Positions 1 through 18,030 of a stretch of DNA of 18,030 nucleotides are shown piece by piece. The notes under the pieces were generated by a model that saw only the letters and a program-made list of their open reading frames with translations, was not told the DNA's origin and ran no database searches. Made by a program: the position numbers and the translations under genes. Positions within the stretch are counted from its first letter, which is position 1. Each line of letters starts with the position of its first letter. The DNA is from Candidatus Sulfobium sp. (GTDB lineage Bacteria; Nitrospirota; Thermodesulfovibrionia; Thermodesulfovibrionales; UBA6898): assembly GCA_037380845.1 (NCBI GenBank), contig JARRRI010000062.1, forward strand, positions 14,371 through 32,400, read 5' to 3'.

Positions 1-1067
1 GAATATACTGCCTTAATCTTTTTGTATAGCTCTTCGGGATTGAAGACGACGCCGCCGGGTCTGACGTAAAACAGAACATCCGATTTGCCGTTGATGGCGA
101 GTCTTACGTCCTCCACCATCTGTCCGGCGTTCATTTCAACAACCAGAAAAGTCCTTCCCTGCACGGCCATTCTGGCCAGCTGCCTCTCCGGAAAAGGATA
201 AAGAGTTACCGGTCTGAAAAGCCCGATTTTAGCACCCTCCCTGCGCAATTCCTGAACAGCTGAAAGAGCTATGCGCGCCGCAGTACCGAAGGCCACTACC
301 ACAAGCTCGGAATCACGGATGTCATAGGCATCGGACATTACCTCTTTCTTCCTGAGCTGATCGTACTTCTTCAGCAGTTTCCTGTTCCTCTGTTCGAGCT
401 CTCCCTGTCCCATGCACAGGGACCTGATCACTCTCGGGTTACGCCCTTTGCATCCGTCCAAAATCCAGTCCTTCTCCGGAAGTTCGGGTCTCACGTATTC
501 AGTCGGGGAAAAGGGCTCCATCATCTGTCCCACTACACCGTCTCCCAGTATAATAGCGGGCATCCTGTACTCGTCGGCCTTGTCGAATGCCCTCATGGTC
601 AGGTCCCACATCTCCTGCAGGCTGAAGGGAGCATAAACGATGCACCGATAATCTCCATGGCCACCGCCCTTCACCGCCTGAAAATAATCTGCCTGGCTGC
701 CGGTAATATTGCCCAGACCCGGACCACCTCTCTGGATATTGACAATCACCGCAGGCAGCTCGGCACCCGCAAGAAACGATATGGCCTCCTGCATCAGACT
801 GATGCCCGGGCTGCTGGAAGAAGTCATCGCCCTCTCGCCCGCCGCTGCAGCCCCGAATACCATGTTAATCGAAGCAAGCTCGCTTTCACCCTGTATGAAA
901 ATGCCTCCCGCCTCGGGCATATGTTTGGCCATGTATTCAGGCACTTCGTTTTGCGGCGTTATGGGGTATCCTGCGTAAAAGCGGCATCCGGCCCTCAACG
1001 CAGCCTCTGCCAGCGCCTCGTTCCCTTTCATGAGCAACATCTGCCCGCTATCTGTCACTTTTTTCAT
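1..1067 (-). CDS. vorB: 2-oxoacid:ferredoxin oxidoreductase alpha-type subunit (VorB family); 3' end runs off the window
   Basis: Manual minus-strand translation (absent from the ORF track) starts MKKVTDSGQMLLMKGNEALAEAALRAGCRFYAGYPITPQNEVPEYM, with the GYPITP motif, and reads ...RPGGVVFNPEELYKKIKAVY at the window edge. Purine-rich AAGGAAGG lies upstream. Confidence 0.88.
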   Translation of the reverse strand, partial: MKKVTDSGQMLLMKGNEALAEAALRAGCRFYAGYPITPQNEVPEYMAKHMPEAGGIFIQGESELASINMVFGAAAAGERAMTSSSSPGISLMQEAISFLAGAELPAVIVNIQRGGPGLGNITGSQADYFQAVKGGGHGDYRCIVYAPFSLQEMWDLTMRAFDKADEYRMPAIILGDGVVGQMMEPFSPTEYVRPELPEKDWILDGCKGRNPRVIRSLCMGQGELEQRNRKLLKKYDQLRKKEVMSDAYDIRDSELVVVAFGTAARIALSAVQELRREGAKIGLFRPVTLYPFPERQLARMAVQGRTFLVVEMNAGQMVEDVRLAINGKSDVLFYVRPGGVVFNPEELYKKIKAVY

Positions 1068-11091: not shown

Positions 11092-12732
11092 TCAGCTCGT
11101 CGTGTCGACAGCCTTCCGGTATTCCTTCCAGAGTTTTTCCTTCGCCATCCCCGCGTCTATGAAGTCCCACGGAAGGTTCTCGGACGCGTCCCTTTTCCGG
11201 AAGATATAAAAACCATACTCTTCCCGGGATTCTGCGCCGCCCAAAGAGAATCTTTGACCCGTCGCCAAACGCTCGATCAATTCAGAGACCCGACGGTCGC
11301 CGCGTGAAAGTACTCCCTGCAGATAGGCATATTTAGGCACATCATGAAAAACCCTCACTCCTTTAGTCGTGGAAAGACCTTTCTTGATCATCTTCAGTCG
11401 TTCCTTGACCTCTTTTATCGGCTCCATGGAGTGCCACTGAAAAGGAGTAAATGGCTTCGGAACGAAAGTGCTGACACTCAGTGCGAGGAGACCCCTCCTG
11501 GAAATCGCCCTGATTTTTCCCACAAGGTCTATAATGCCTTCCACGTCCAGCCTTGTTTCTGTGGGCAGACCCACCATGAAATAGAGTCTGAGCGTTTCAG
11601 TCTCACCATCCAGAATAAGCTTTGCGGTATCAAGGATGTCTTCATCCGTGATCTTCTTGCCGATAACGTCTCTTAATCTCTGCGTTCCGGCTTCGGGAGC
11701 AATCGACACGCTCCTGTGCCGCTTCATCAGCGCCGAGATGCGGCCGCTCCTCTCGCTCGCACGCAGCGAGGTAATGGAAAAATCGACCCCTTCTATCGAC
11801 ATGACGTCTTCTGCATGGGGATAGTCTGTCAACGAGGGGCCGATGAGACCGACCCTCCCCGTCTTTTTCTTTGCATCTGTTATTTCGGCCCTGACGGTCT
11901 CCAGGTCCTTCTTCCTGGGTGGATTATATAGATGGCCCGCCAGGCAGAACCTGCAGGACCAGGGACAGCCCCGCATGGCTTCGAGCAGATACATGTCGGC
12001 AAACTCGGCTTCGGGGGTAGTTATAACGGGCCTGAAAGAAGACCGGGAGATGTCTTTTATCGTCCTCTTCCTGATAAATTCGGGGGCGTCGTCAATCACC
12101 TGCCTGCCGAGGATGAGACCGGTATCATGCGCATAATTAACCGAGTAATATTTAGGCACATACAGACCGTCGATCTTCAGGCATTTGTTGAACAATTCAT
12201 CTTTTGTCGAGGAATTTCTGAAAGCAGACAGAAACTCCGGGACCATCTCCTCCGCCTCTCCGACCAAGACAATGTCCATGAATTCCGCAAGCGGCTCCGG
12301 GTTTGAAAAGCTGCATACACCTCCCATGACGATGACAGGATGCGCCTGACTCCTCCCGGAGCTCCTTGCAGGTATCCTTGCCATCCTCAGTATCTTTAAG
12401 ATATTGGGATAGTCGTTCTCGAAAGAGACGGAGAAAGCCACGATGTCGAACCGGGACAGAGGTCTCCTGGACTCGAGCGAAAAGAGTTCAGAACCCGTCC
12501 TTTCGTATTCTTCTATCTCGTCTTCGGCAGGCAGAAAGACCCTCTCGCACACTACGTCACTGAAGCCGTTCAACAGGCCGTAGATGCCCTGGAAGCCGAG
12601 GCTCGACATCCCCACGGAATAGATGTTGGGATAAACCAGGACTATCTTGAGCTTACCTCCGGGGTCCTTGTAGATCGTTCCCTTTTCCCTCGAAAGGAGA
12701 TAATCGGCCCGTTCCGCGAGCTTTTTGTTCAT
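11092..12732 (-). CDS. Radical SAM protein with an N-terminal B12-binding-like domain (TIGR03960-like)
   Basis: YPNIYSVGMSSLG N-terminus, RGCPWSCRFC (CxxxCxxC), APEAGTQRLR, YFMVGLPTET, FVPKPFTPFQW and LPWD. Confidence 0.88.
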   Translation of the reverse strand: MNKKLAERADYLLSREKGTIYKDPGGKLKIVLVYPNIYSVGMSSLGFQGIYGLLNGFSDVVCERVFLPAEDEIEEYERTGSELFSLESRRPLSRFDIVAFSVSFENDYPNILKILRMARIPARSSGRSQAHPVIVMGGVCSFSNPEPLAEFMDIVLVGEAEEMVPEFLSAFRNSSTKDELFNKCLKIDGLYVPKYYSVNYAHDTGLILGRQVIDDAPEFIRKRTIKDISRSSFRPVITTPEAEFADMYLLEAMRGCPWSCRFCLAGHLYNPPRKKDLETVRAEITDAKKKTGRVGLIGPSLTDYPHAEDVMSIEGVDFSITSLRASERSGRISALMKRHRSVSIAPEAGTQRLRDVIGKKITDEDILDTAKLILDGETETLRLYFMVGLPTETRLDVEGIIDLVGKIRAISRRGLLALSVSTFVPKPFTPFQWHSMEPIKEVKERLKMIKKGLSTTKGVRVFHDVPKYAYLQGVLSRGDRRVSELIERLATGQRFSLGGAESREEYGFYIFRKRDASENLPWDFIDAGMAKEKLWKEYRKAVDTTS

Positions 12733-13028: not shown

Positions 13029-13097
13029 TTCAGATGTCCTCCGCAGCCAAACTACCGATGCTTCCCGATTATGTCGGCAGAATGGTACAATTTCCCA

Positions 13098-13544
13098 ATG
13101 AAGATCATCACTCAAAACAAGAAGGCATTCCATGATTATTCCATCGAAGAGACTCTGGAGGCCGGCATCCTGCTTCAGGGCACCGAGGTGAAATCACTCC
13201 GTGAAGGAAAGGCCAACCTCAGGGACAGTTATGTCATCGTTAAGGATGGAGAGGTCTTTCTCCTGAATTGCCATATCAGTCCCTATTCACACGGAAATAT
13301 CATGAACCACGACCCCCTGAGGACGAGGAAGCTCCTCCTGCACAGAAGGGAGATCACGAAGCTCCAGGGCAAAGCGGCGCAAAAAGGATATTCGCTTATT
13401 CCACTGAAGCTTTACTTCAAGAACTCTCATGTAAAGGTTGAGGTCGGACTGGCCAGAGGGAAGAAACAATATGAAAAAAGAGAGACCATCAAGAAAAGGG
13501 AGGCTGACCGGGAAATAGAGCGCGCTATGAAATCCCGGCGCTGA
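13098..13544 (+). CDS. smpB: SsrA-binding protein
   Basis: [31 protein letters not shown] and GKKQYEKRE motifs. Directly upstream of tmRNA. Confidence 0.98.
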
Positions 13545-13555
13545 ATTGCCGGATA

Positions 13556-13564
13556 TGGTAAAAT
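13556..13564 (+). promoter_or_regulatory. Extended -10 promoter (TGgTAAAAT) for ssrA
   Basis: Motif lies 20 nt upstream of the mature tmRNA 5' end. Confidence 0.55.
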
Positions 13565-13584
13565 ACGATGTATAAGCATACCTC

Positions 13585-13932
13585 GGGGGCGAATGGGCTC
13601 GACGGGGGTTATGAGGCTTATGTGGCATGTCGTGGCTCCATCACCACGTTAAAAGATGGAAACAAACACAAACGCCAACAACGAACTGGCACTCGCTGCT
13701 TAACTAGAAGCAGCTCGCTGCTCCGGGATTGTCTGCGTTCCGGGGATAGCGACAATCAGCAGGCTGGCTGCCGGGGACTTCTCCCGATCCGGCGGCGAGA
13801 CAAGGGGAGATGGGAATCCCGGAAGCCTGGTTGCCGGCGTCCCGGATTCCGAGATCTAAAAGACAGCCTACACATGTAGAAGCATAAGTGTAGTACCTTC
13901 GGACGCGGGTTCGATTCCCGCCGCCTCCACCA
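13585..13932 (+). ncRNA. ssrA: tmRNA, tag (A)ANNELALAA
   Basis: 5' GGGGGCG pairs with 3' CGCCTCC-ACCA, including G3:U70. T arm GCGGG-TTCGATT-CCCGC. Tag ORF at 13674-13703 reads GCC AAC AAC GAA CTG GCA CTC GCT GCT TAA. Confidence 0.97.
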
Positions 13933-16062: not shown

Positions 16063-16418
16063 GTCTGCATCTTCCTCCCTACACCAGCTTCAACAATCTA
16101 TGGTCAGGCACCGTTCCAGCCCAATTGCTTCATGAGGCGACCGAACTTCCGCTGAAATTCTCGCCGCAATAATTACAGTAGTAATCTACAATCTTGGTTG
16201 GGCTCTGTCAATTATTTGTTTCAGGAAGGAAGGTTGCGGCGGCCGATCTTCTTTCCGGAACGAGCAGTTTGTCCCGTACTATAGCCCAGGCGAAGTTGTT
16301 CGGCGGTATTGGTCAAATTTTCATCTTCTTCCTGTTAATCACACTGTCACGTTTTGTCATAGTCTTGAAGTTTCTTGAGGCATACGAGAGGTTAACAGTG
16401 CCTCAATATTGAATCGAT

Positions 16419-16447
16419 TTGACGGATGTGAAATTCATACGTATACT
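16419..16447 (+). promoter_or_regulatory. Sigma70 promoter upstream of the leader ORF / tRNA / yedF unit
   Basis: TTGACG (16419-16424), 17-nt spacer, TATACT (16442-16447). Confidence 0.8.
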
Positions 16448-16481
16448 GAAGAAGACTATTGCGTTGAAAGGAGGTGGACAG

Positions 16482-16607
16482 GTGATCGCCCGTTTTATGC
16501 CGGGGCTTTTTAAAGCCGGGTTTGGTTGAGAATGTTCGTCAAAAGCCTGGTCGAGGTTTTCCGGCGTGGAGTTCGGCGGTCATTGCGGTTCACGCTCCGA
16601 AGAGTAG
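16482..16607 (+). CDS. Putative 41-aa selenocysteine-containing leader peptide MIARFMPGLFKAGFG-U-ECSSKAWSRFSGVEFGGHCGSRSEE (15 aa if UGA terminates)
   Basis: SD AAAGGAGGTG (16467-16476), GTG at 16482, in-frame TGA at 16527-16529 followed by a SECIS-like hairpin, TAG at 16605-16607. Confidence 0.6.
16537..16566 (+). promoter_or_regulatory. Bacterial SECIS-like hairpin
   Basis: Upper stem AAAGCCT (16542-16548) / AGGTTTT (16554-16560). Loop GGTCG begins 19 nt after the UGA. Lower stem CGTC/GGCG. Resembles the E. coli fdhF SECIS in its GGUC loop and spacing. Confidence 0.6.
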
Positions 16608-16783
16608 CACTTAGTCCGCCTAAGTAGATCGAGCCAACCCTCCAATAAAAACTCCATAAGGAAAAAGATTTTCTAACCTCCATAGCTGTCTCAGGCAATA
16701 ATTGTCCGCTAATCATGCTGAAATTTCCGGAGATGCATGGGCACCTGGAACTGCCCTGTATGCTTTAGAAGAATGAACCCAGA

Positions 16784-16877
16784 GGGGGATAAGGGGCTGG
16801 TGCCCCACCTGGTCTGCAAAACTGTGCTCGCGCCCTGAGGGGGTTGCGGTGGGTTCGATTCCCACTATCCTCCTCCA
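16784..16877 (+). tRNA. tRNA-Sec-like tRNA with Cys identity (selC*-type tRNA-Cys, anticodon GCA)
   Basis: Acceptor GGGGGATA/TATCCTCC (8 bp), U73 and encoded CCA. D arm GGGGC-TGGT-GCCCC. Anticodon loop CT-GCA-AA (16814-16820). Long variable arm at 16829-16848. T arm GTGGG-TTCGATT-CCCAC. Total 94 nt. Confidence 0.88.
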
Positions 16878-16901
16878 AAAAAGTGAAAGGAGACTCAAAA
16901 A

Positions 16902-17507
16902 ATGATAATTGACGCAAGGGGTCTTGGATGCCCTAAGCCGGTCTTGTTGGCGGAGGAAGCCCTCGCCGGGATAAAGGACGGTATAGTGGAAGTGCTGGTG
17001 GATGATGAAGGTTCATCGGAAAATGTCTTGACATTCGCTCAAAGTGCCGGCTGTTATGGCGAAGTTTCCAGAGAAGGTCGGGACTTCCGGGTCAAAATTG
17101 TGAAGGGATATACTTGCCGGCCTGCCAATACAATATCGGAAAAGAAAAGGGAGGAGGTCATAAATTCAAGGAAGGACATACTTATGGTGGTGGCTACTGA
17201 TCAGTTGGGCAAAGAGGAGGAGCTTGGCCGGATACTCATCAAAGGATTTTTTGAAACAATGACAGTAACGAAAGAAATTCCGCACACGATTTTCTTTCTC
17301 AATACAGGGGTGAAACTTACGACCCTTAATGAGGAACTGATAACCGTGCTGAATAAGATCGAGCAGATGGGGGCAGAGATCTTTTCGTGCGGCACCTGTC
17401 TCAAATATTACGGGCTTGAATCGAGCCTCAAGGTCGGTTACCGAGGGACAACCAACAACATCCTTGAGGGCATGGCTGACAGAATGAAAACCGTGTGGAT
17501 AGGCTAG
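16902..17507 (+). CDS. yedF: Sulfurtransferase-like selenium metabolism protein YedF (TusA/SirA plus DsrE-like domains)
   Basis: N-terminal IDARGLGCPKP (CPxP). C-terminal DQLG..ELGRIL, FFLNTGVKLT and SCGTCL. SD GAAAGGAG; starts 24 nt after the tRNA CCA. Confidence 0.88.
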   Translation: MIIDARGLGCPKPVLLAEEALAGIKDGIVEVLVDDEGSSENVLTFAQSAGCYGEVSREGRDFRVKIVKGYTCRPANTISEKKREEVINSRKDILMVVATDQLGKEEELGRILIKGFFETMTVTKEIPHTIFFLNTGVKLTTLNEELITVLNKIEQMGAEIFSCGTCLKYYGLESSLKVGYRGTTNNILEGMADRMKTVWIG

Positions 17508-17766: not shown

Positions 17767-18030
17767 ATGAGAACACTAAAGATGTACGGCGGGATAGTCT
17801 TGGCGATCATCTTGCTCCTTGTCGGCATCGTCTTCTTGAAGGACCCCTACTCGGCCGGTCAATTCGTTTCCAACTATTTCGCCGTGGGAGACTTTGCGCG
17901 AGGCGTTTTTTCGGCAGGCCAATTTTCGGCGGGCATATTTGCCGCCGGCACCTTCGCGATCGGGGTGTTCTCCGCCGGGATTTTTTCTGTTGGCGTATTC
18001 TCCATTGGAGTGTTTTCGTTTGGGCTGTGC
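17767..18030 (+). CDS. Membrane protein with G-x-F-[SA]-x pentapeptide repeats (partial, runs off the window)
   Basis: Manual translation: MRTLKMYGGIVLAIILLLVGIVFLKDPYSAGQFVSNYFAVGDFARGVFSAGQFSAGIFAAGTFAIGVFSAGIFSVGVFSIGVFSFGLC. SD GGGAGG. Confidence 0.8.
   Translation, partial: MRTLKMYGGIVLAIILLLVGIVFLKDPYSAGQFVSNYFAVGDFARGVFSAGQFSAGIFAAGTFAIGVFSAGIFSVGVFSIGVFSFGLC

Follow-up and report, generated by a model that had tools for sequence, protein, structure and literature searches.

Can a bacterium gauge its supply of selenocysteine (Sec) by letting a ribosome try to pass a UGA codon in a short leader frame, and use the outcome to control genes further along the transcript? This question is raised by a locus of Candidatus Sulfobium sp. 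(Nitrospirota; Thermodesulfovibrionia; Thermodesulfovibrionales; UBA6898) that lies in an 18,030-nucleotide stretch of contig JARRRI010000062.1 (assembly GCA_037380845.1, positions 14,371 to 32,400 of the forward strand), which we refer to as the window and whose own numbering is used below. An earlier note, made without database searches, had seen four co-oriented parts in series, namely a promoter, a short frame with an in-frame UGA followed by a hairpin resembling a Sec insertion sequence (SECIS), a tRNA and the gene yedF, and had read them as a selenocysteine attenuator governing the tRNA and yedF. All four parts are present, between 16419 and 17507, and the interpretation is supported by the comparison of related leaders presented here. 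Our reading, to which we give a probability of about 0.7, is that the leader acts in cis and would read the supply of Sec-tRNA(Sec), and hence selenium status, by means of the translating ribosome. It is carried by the anatomy of the element and its conservation, by coding-type variation before the UGA and an open frame behind it, by covariation in a long-range helix (P1), by selenium-linked genes downstream and by the Sec machinery of the genome; binding of SelB, insertion of Sec, a pause of the ribosome and an output step would complete the device.

The leader in the window

All parts of the locus lie on the forward strand. The near-consensus sigma-70-type promoter that the earlier note had pointed out (16419–16447) consists of a -35 box TTGACG (16419–16424), a 17-base spacer and a -10 box TATACT (16442–16447), with 10 of 12 consensus matches. 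No other promoter-like site was found on this strand between 16000 and 18030, and so none that could serve the tRNA separately. Taken alone the site is not beyond chance (three promoter-like sites in the scanned region against 1.8 +/- 1.5 in shuffles); the same pair of boxes at the same distance is seen by eye in the printed leader copies from other genomes.

Behind the promoter follows a Shine-Dalgarno site, AAGGAGGUG (16468–16476, with GGAGG at 16470–16474), which is kept in the alignments and also forms the 5' strand of helix P1a, and then the leader frame itself (16482–16529), recognised by its coding-type variation, which opens with GTG (16482–16484), runs for 15 codons, MIARFMPGLFKAGFG, and closes with TGA (16527–16529). 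A ribosome that passed this stop would meet a readthrough extension of 25 codons (16530–16607), an open in-frame stretch ending at TAG (16605–16607, codon 42). The SECIS-like hairpin, which is identified by conservation, occupies 16542–16560, with a stem of seven pairs and the loop GGUCG, and contains a 14-base core, CCUGGUCGAGGUUU (16546–16559), that is identical in all copies; its stem begins 15 bases after the U of the UGA and the first base of its loop lies 22 bases after it. The short frame with its ribosome-binding site, UGA and hairpin thus agrees in every part with the first description. Helix P1, found with RNAalifold and pair counts, is made of a 5' strand that takes in the Shine-Dalgarno site, the start codon and codons 1 to 8 (16470–16503) and a 3' strand that lies directly past the hairpin, within the readthrough frame (16561–16598). 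From P1 to the tRNA extends a spacer with more C than G (16599–16783). Rfam gave no match in the window leader at E <= 1, and at E <= 0.01 sixteen related loci gave matches of tRNA type only.

The tRNA (16784–16877, 94 bases) is called tRNA-Cys with anticodon GCA by ARAGORN, and scores 47.3 bits on the Rfam tRNA-Sec model against a gathering score of 47; inspection reveals an acceptor stem of eight pairs, a discriminator U and an encoded CCA. A class of tRNA-Cys known as selC*, described by Mukai et al. (PMC5389517), is defined there by a U73 discriminator, a GCA (or UCA) anticodon and a shape like that of tRNA-Sec, and since the window tRNA has U73, GCA and this shape it is by these features a member of the class, in line with the Sec-shaped tRNA of Cys identity that had been proposed for the locus. 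The start codon of yedF lies 24 bases past its end; the coding sequence (16902–17507) is preceded by the Shine-Dalgarno site AAAGGAG (16886–16892), and its product scores 191.8 bits on TIGR03527 (cut-off 110) over model positions 1–194, with a TusA domain present; proteins of this family have a TusA-like N-terminal and a DsrE-like C-terminal part.

Distribution and conservation of the leader

The leader was sought in several ways. In a joint search for tRNA and leader across 41 genomes (40 relatives and the window's own), the tRNA was matched in many and the leader in one only, which belongs to another family. A similarity search with the leader alone returned 30 of the 317 genomes of the order at E <= 0.01; besides the window's own locus it gave 29 loci, 18 of them with the invariant 14-base core, and the remaining 11, weak matches without the core, were dropped. 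A pattern scan over one genome per species gave 19 matches, in records titled Nitrospirae, Nitrospirota or Thermodesulfovibrionia except for one Deltaproteobacteria and one 'Bacterium BMS3Bbin08', and a scan of metagenomes gave 11, of which 8 were new. After removal of duplicates there are 37 unique copies, so that the arrangement of Shine-Dalgarno site, start, UGA and hairpin is conserved, as the earlier note had predicted for related loci. Statistics over copies are given for n=26 (frame opening, P1 pairs, distance from stop to P1) or n=34 (entropy, TGA, stops). When the 14-base core was searched for alone, with no TGA presupposed, 27 matches were found in 24 of the 317 genomes, against 2 for a reversed control, and 23 of the 27 are leader copies; the other four lie in unrelated sequence with no leader context and were set aside as chance. 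On these records the leader is a lineage-restricted, modular element conserved within one bacterial class.

The leader of the window (16410–16700) is 82–91% identical to copies L045–L049, which come from another family of the order, and the two same-genus genomes G001 and G002 are without it and have an arrangement with a LysR gene in its place. The module looks to have been laterally exchanged, given this identity across families alongside its absence from close relatives.

Translation of the leader frame and possible passage of the UGA

Every copy has the promoter, a Shine-Dalgarno site and a start codon, which is ATG, GTG or TTG. Of 26 copies, 20 have a frame of 15 codons before the UGA and four one of 14–29 codons, with no clear start in two; for L045 the start counted is the one adjoining the Shine-Dalgarno site. 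Its last eight codons encode (G/R)(L/I)FK(A/S/T)(G/A)(F/Y)G, and variation over the last nine falls mostly on third positions (summed entropy 6.31, 4.51 and 10.90 at positions 1, 2 and 3), so this stretch behaves, in the way it varies, as coding sequence. The TGA is kept in 34 of 34 copies, 18 of which come from the similarity search that did not require it, and the stops that come next in frame are mixed (TAA 15, TGA 13, TAG 5). What is expected of a leader attenuator, a short translated frame with a codon that reports on a charged tRNA, is found here in the coding-type variation, the length of 15 codons and the invariant UGA.

Past the TGA the pattern changes. The core CCUGGUCGAGGUUU follows at 16–21 bases and is identical in every copy, and the residues encoded after the UGA form no conserved protein sequence; indels between UGA and hairpin are not multiples of three, so that the core is read in all three frames across lineages. 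In frame, all 26 copies nonetheless stay open for 20 codons or more, and the stretch is 20–38 codons long in all 33 complete ones, whereas the other frames are often shut before codon 20 (+1 in 11 of 26 copies, +2 in 15 of 26); the copies are related and are not independent trials, the pattern spanning about 14 sequence clusters as judged by eye. In the 25 fully aligned copies no readthrough stop falls short of the 3' end of P1; it lies 0–48 bases (median about 16) past that end. A ribosome that had gone beyond the UGA would, from this position of the stop, unwind the whole 3' strand of P1 and halt just behind it.

Helix P1 pairs the ribosome-binding site with sequence behind the hairpin

P1 was first paired by RNAalifold on eight close copies, and a covariance model of P1 together with the hairpin recovered 26 of 26 copies. 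Its cells are paired in 89.2% of cases, against 41–53% when the partners are slid by 1–3 columns; 28 of 38 pairs have changes on both sides, and none of 500 shuffles reaches the observed values. In helix 2 single positions carry several pair types (for example UA 8, AU 5, CG 3 and UG 3). P1 thus covaries, and is predicted to pair the leader's own ribosome-binding site with the sequence that follows the hairpin. The proposal that the stems of the leader would covary therefore holds in part: the long-range helix, which had gone unnoticed in that proposal, covaries, but the hairpin itself is nearly invariant.

The spacer behind P1 has C and G fractions of 0.26 and 0.15 in the window, and C exceeds G in 23 of 24 copies (means 0.25 and 0.17). 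Attenuation that depends on Rho, as in leaders of tna type, uses an unstructured loading region rich in C and poor in G behind the leader frame. The composition seen here would suit such loading of Rho, as far as composition can indicate it. In a review of Rho (PMC12360218) SelB is listed as a Rho partner of unknown effect.

Selenocysteine machinery and SECIS candidates of the same genome

A SECIS needs SelB and the other parts of the Sec pathway in its host, and the genome from which the window comes has them, as the earlier note had asked: a true tRNA-Sec with anticodon UCA (73 bits), selA (620 bits) and selB (332 bits) next to each other, and a selD with one in-frame TGA. Bacterial SECIS hairpins begin about 11–37 bases after the in-frame UGA, and those of E. 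coli and Moorella have loops of GGUC type. The distance from TGA to core in the leader, 16–21 bases in 34 of 34 copies, lies within this range. The genome was also scanned for in-frame TGAs with a GGUY-loop hairpin behind them, the frames being judged by eye from translations. This gave an fdhA-like frame of 910 codons with an in-frame TGA and a candidate SECIS loop GGUCU at +21, and two further candidate hairpins with loops at +20 and +24. With its loop GGUCG, which is invariant among the copies, at +22, the leader fits the genome's own set of candidates (GGUCU/GGUC, +20 to +24).

The same genome holds other frames of this kind. On contig C89 (about 53–871, reverse strand) two successive in-frame TGAs, each with a GGUC-loop hairpin behind it, join three open stretches into one frame, a candidate protein with two Sec residues, and a similar case with a single TGA is found on contig C13 (42893–43327).

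Genes downstream of the leader and relatives without it

The first long frame downstream was scanned in 34 copies, and the genes that follow the leader are of few kinds. A signal-peptide lipoprotein-like protein with a Transglut_core domain is encoded in 15, an HGD-D protein in 12, a YedF-type protein in four, and one copy each has a rhodanese followed by yedF, an ArsR regulator followed by a MerC-like frame, or a frame of no family. The HGD-D proteins score as double-cubane-cluster reductases (NF040772, 479 bits against 350), and at least two loci have an activase 3' of the HGD-D frame. Downstream of the hairpin core, a co-oriented gene or tRNA follows after 136–506 bases. The claim that the leader controls a locus of tRNA/yedF type accordingly needs widening: the leader does precede tRNA and yedF, but the same module also stands before double-cubane reductase and transglutaminase-like genes.

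These genes have been linked to selenium before. Lin et al. (PMC5322559) give as STRING partners of YedF a 'CoA-substrate-specific enzyme activase', a '2-hydroxyglutaryl-CoA dehydratase subunit' and a transglutaminase-like enzyme, and also report a LysR-like gene adjoining selA, selB and selD. Haft (bioRxiv 10.1101/2022.07.06.499078) gives 955 of 970 high-scoring NF040772 proteins as belonging to SelD-containing assemblies.

With a tRNA model built from 14 selC* tRNAs, 15 of the 37 copies were found to have a selC*-like tRNA downstream of the leader, 7 of the 15 having been in the training set. Nine of these matches score at least 79 bits and six 32–53 bits; those with the lower scores look diverged, and stand between leader and transglutaminase-like gene. 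The spacers between leader and transglutaminase-like gene of L055, L056, L058, L082, L093, L095 and L097 contain diverged selC*-like tRNAs that ARAGORN missed. Six of these seven score 37–79 bits on the selC* model and that of L058 has no match at E <= 0.01; the anticodon loop has CCA in L058 and GAA in L097 (alignment A6). They may be decaying or retargeted copies. In L054 (1773–1868, forward strand) the selC*-type tRNA between leader copy and yedF has the anticodon GUA (Tyr), not GCA, while its U73 and the remainder of its anticodon loop fit the family.

Two further loci differ in what lies behind the leader. In L045 (813–1328, forward strand) the rhodanese-domain frame past the leader, which is followed by yedF, shares its first 13 residues with the double-cubane reductases (MSGKDYTKMWEGL), and this common stretch suggests a recombination scar at the boundary of the module. 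In L075 (2484–3380, forward strand) the leader copy is followed after 460 bases by the ArsR-family regulator and the MerC-like membrane protein.

Relatives without the leader have selC* followed by yedF or the reductase, or a transglutaminase-like gene before selC*. The core motif was not found upstream of selC* in eleven such relatives, two of them of the same genus. In both loci scanned, a LysR regulator of selenium metabolism (NF040786) lies directly upstream of selC* (276.7 and 326.4 bits, cut-off 250), and in several other leaderless loci a similar frame ends the upstream text, as seen by eye. So one and the same gene set has a selenium-associated transcription factor in some of the genomes and, in others, the leader. 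Five leaderless loci (L025, L028, L031, L034 and L036) have a palindrome-like motif, ATAG...TATCTATTTGT..TATAG, between the LysR_Sec_metab gene and selC*, and a second conserved motif, GGCTATACCTGAAT, that abuts the 5' end of the tRNA. The first is likely an operator and the second likely a leader or processing signal.

How the leader may work

We propose that the strong promoter, which is of constitutive type, would yield a leader RNA of about 330 bases, on which a ribosome would load at the strong Shine-Dalgarno site, translate the 15 codons with their conserved final peptide, and reach the UGA, behind which a SECIS-type hairpin lies at canonical distance. If SelB and Sec-tRNA(Sec) were present, SelB would bind the hairpin, Sec would be inserted, and the ribosome would cross the hairpin and the 3' strand of P1 and stop just beyond; if they were absent, it would pause or terminate at the UGA. 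The two outcomes would leave P1 and the C-rich spacer in different states, and this state would set how much transcript reaches the selC* tRNA-Cys and yedF or, in other genomes, the double-cubane reductase or the transglutaminase-like lipoprotein. With a tRNA so often the target, the leader more likely acts on transcript elongation than on translation, and since neither a terminator nor a platform that occludes a Shine-Dalgarno site was found in the searches described below, the term attenuator is used here for a presumed mode of action.

As to the direction of the response, we lean slightly towards one like that of the trp leader, in which, under selenium shortage, a ribosome paused at the UGA and another queued behind it on the 45-base frame would keep P1 open and expression on. 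Insertion of Sec would then let P1 re-form behind the ribosome and expose the spacer to termination, perhaps by Rho, so that expression falls. In keeping with this direction are the conserved peptide, the fixed length of the frame and a physiological analogy with the selenium-repressed cysteine isoforms of methanogens, as summarised in PMC5322559.

A bolder version of this scheme, which we offer tentatively and think somewhat more likely to fail than to hold, would make the leader the first natural regulator to sense a trace element by recoding of a stop codon. An arrest-type leader peptide would hold the ribosome at the UGA and SECIS until SelB delivers Sec-tRNA(Sec), and the toggled P1 would switch on a selenium-starvation regulon of selC*, YedF, an ATP-driven double-cubane reductase and a periplasmic transglutaminase-like lipoprotein. 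At its core the selC* tRNA-Cys would be a cysteine-carrying stand-in for tRNA(Sec), and its partner genes would serve the scavenging or handling of selenium. If this were true it would provide the first physiological context for selC* tRNAs with GCA anticodons.

Weighing the alternatives

Several observations weigh against a Sec-sensing leader, or limit what the evidence for one can bear. The support for the hairpin is conservation and not folding stability: neither the 83 bases after the UGA (z = +0.88) nor the leader of 330 bases (z = -0.29) folds more stably than shuffles. Its stem is nearly invariant, with three pairs that never vary, three that vary on one side and one on both, so that pairing is not proven by covariation, and invariance of this kind could reflect the binding of a factor other than SelB. 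The alignment from which P1 pairs were counted was fitted to the structure, which favours the structure. The pattern scans required the TGA and the two codons before it, and the copies they found are uninformative on the invariance of these positions; every copy comes from a metagenome-assembled genome or a metagenome, and the sequencing runs listed for the stretch are 13 DNA runs from 10 studies, none of RNA. The gene selA is present in 18 of 18 leader genomes, but also in 283 of the 317 genomes of the order, so its co-occurrence with the leader says little. The LysR regulator NF040786 is found elsewhere in all five leader genomes tested, and the idea that the leader replaces it genome-wide was rejected on this count.

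The output step is where searches returned least. No intrinsic terminator (hairpin and U-tract) occurs consistently across the 26 copies, and none was found in the window spacer. Constrained folding with ribosome masks in 19 copies gave no consistent change in the accessibility of the downstream Shine-Dalgarno site, the stalled state being more open than the readthrough state in four copies and less open in three. A duplex test of the 3' strand of P1 against the spacer gave one of 23 at p <= 0.05, with a median z of -0.18; short complementary stretches between the two, seen by eye in two groups, were not counted as evidence. Of the mutually exclusive helices of a trp-type leader, one of which is a terminator, only P1 is supported.

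Of the other explanations, the one with most in its favour, though in our view unlikely, is that the leader peptide and the structured RNA sense a signal other than Sec, with the UGA an ordinary stop and the hairpin a binding site for another protein or a small molecule; in one variant the peptide would possibly slow release by release factor 2 (RF2), as that of tnaC does at its stop codon. Conservation of the nascent peptide immediately ahead of the stop is a typical trait of arrest peptides, the hairpin is kept in sequence rather than by covariation, P1 with its large internal loop resembles the architecture of riboswitches, and SelB enters our own reading only as the presumed ligand. What speaks for decoding of the UGA all the same is that all 26 copies keep the frame behind it open, with early stops in the other frames, and that this frame always ends just past P1; if translation ended at the UGA there would be no reason for either. 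The exclusive use of TGA where the readthrough stops are mixed, the match of loop motif and distance to the candidate SECIS hairpins of the same genome, and the selenium-linked genes downstream likewise sit poorly with a non-Sec signal.

If the UGA is decoded, the element might still be an ordinary gene for a small selenoprotein of about 36–54 residues, such as a selenium carrier peptide, with no regulatory role, and its 15 conserved N-terminal residues, UGA, SECIS-like hairpin, open frame and place beside selenium genes are what such a gene would have. We hold this to be improbable, as the residues after Sec are not conserved and indels put the core in all three frames; conservation further downstream is that of an RNA helix in which the ribosome-binding site of the frame itself is one partner; and the element always has a strong promoter on one side and, on the other, a gene or tRNA in the same orientation, no second promoter having been found in the window. 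About as improbable, or marginally more so, is an operator that SelB would bind without decoding, like the element of the E. coli selAB leader, so altering folding or translation, with the short frame incidental. A SECIS-type hairpin inside a helix that holds a ribosome-binding site would suit such an operator, and SelB has a precedent as a translational repressor; an incidental frame, however, would hardly vary as coding sequence, have 15 codons in 20 of 26 copies, carry a UGA at a SECIS-appropriate distance in every copy and be kept open for readthrough across P1. We therefore retain the leader that senses Sec-tRNA(Sec) through its ribosome as the reading to be compared with what is known.

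Relation to known systems

Known or proposed selenium sensing in bacteria comprises a LysR-type regulator, autoregulation by SelB and polarity inside selenoprotein genes. The present element would join two known principles, sensing by a leader peptide and recoding at a SECIS. In attenuation of the trp/his type, which is mediated by the ribosome, the leader peptide senses the supply of a charged tRNA, and our leader is similar in its short frame behind a strong promoter, in a codon that depends on one charged tRNA and in a stop placed so that a readthrough ribosome covers one strand of a conserved helix. It differs in that the place of a run of sense codons is taken by a recoded stop, whose decoding requires SelB together with a hairpin in the mRNA, and in that no 3:4 terminator hairpin was found, the leader helix sequestering its own ribosome-binding site. 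With the SECIS of fdhF it shares a hairpin at a fixed short distance past an in-frame UGA and an apical loop of GGUC type, but the leader frame has no conserved protein behind the UGA, and the hairpin is embedded in a helix of a 5' leader. Thanbichler and Bock reportedly found a SECIS-like element in the E. coli selAB leader that acts in regulation through SelB with no decoded UGA; this too is a SECIS-type hairpin in the 5' leader of selenium-related genes, whereas here a UGA closes a translated, conserved frame.

A parallel is found in Treponema primitia, where selenium controls transcription of fdhF(Sec) via translation across the SECIS (Matson et al., PMC3892789). What would be common to both is that translation through a UGA and SECIS decides how far transcription extends, and that selenium sets the level of mRNA after initiation; according to that paper the UGA lies inside the selenoenzyme gene, whereas here it ends a dedicated 15-codon leader before other genes, a tRNA included. 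The selC* tRNA-Cys of the window, with its U73, GCA and tRNA-Sec-like shape in a genome with complete Sec machinery, is like those described in PMC5389517, in which Thermodesulfovibrio and Nitrospirae are among the carriers; the main text of that paper has no occurrence of yedF, SECIS or operon, and the leader and linked genes are undescribed in it. A different device is proposed by the Mukai paper on selB with a nested selC (PMC8124441). Selenium-associated LysR regulators are known as LysR_Se, and as HrsM in Methanococcus (PMC5322559). Like the leader, the NF040786 regulators stand, in relatives, directly upstream of selC* with yedF or the reductase; unlike it, they are protein transcription factors and not a device of RNA and ribosome, and both occur in the same genomes.

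Full-text searches of open-access PubMed Central papers and bioRxiv preprints turned up no account of a UGA/SECIS leader peptide. If our reading is right, a recoded stop codon and an mRNA hairpin would here take the place of sense codons, which would make the leader an attenuator of a new type, and its regulation in cis would define a selenium regulon of genes that are poorly understood, namely those of selC* tRNA-Cys, YedF, double-cubane reductases and transglutaminase-like lipoproteins. The leader would also offer a first means of learning when the enigmatic selC* tRNA is made, and could serve as a compact, portable reporter of selenium or of Sec decoding, and from the conserved peptide that precedes the UGA one may learn how a growing chain influences the contest of RF2 with SelB.

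Other features of the window

Three features of the window lie outside the locus. Past yedF, an open frame on the forward strand (17767–18030, running past the end of the window) has a hydrophobic start and repeats of GxFSAG type rich in Gly, Phe, Ser and Ala, and matched no family. A B12-binding radical SAM protein is encoded on the reverse strand at 11092–12732 (TIGR03960, 404 bits, under the cut-off of 462). At 13071–13932 lies an ordinary pair, smpB (230 bits) with the gene for tmRNA (202 bits, tag ANNELALAA) immediately behind it.

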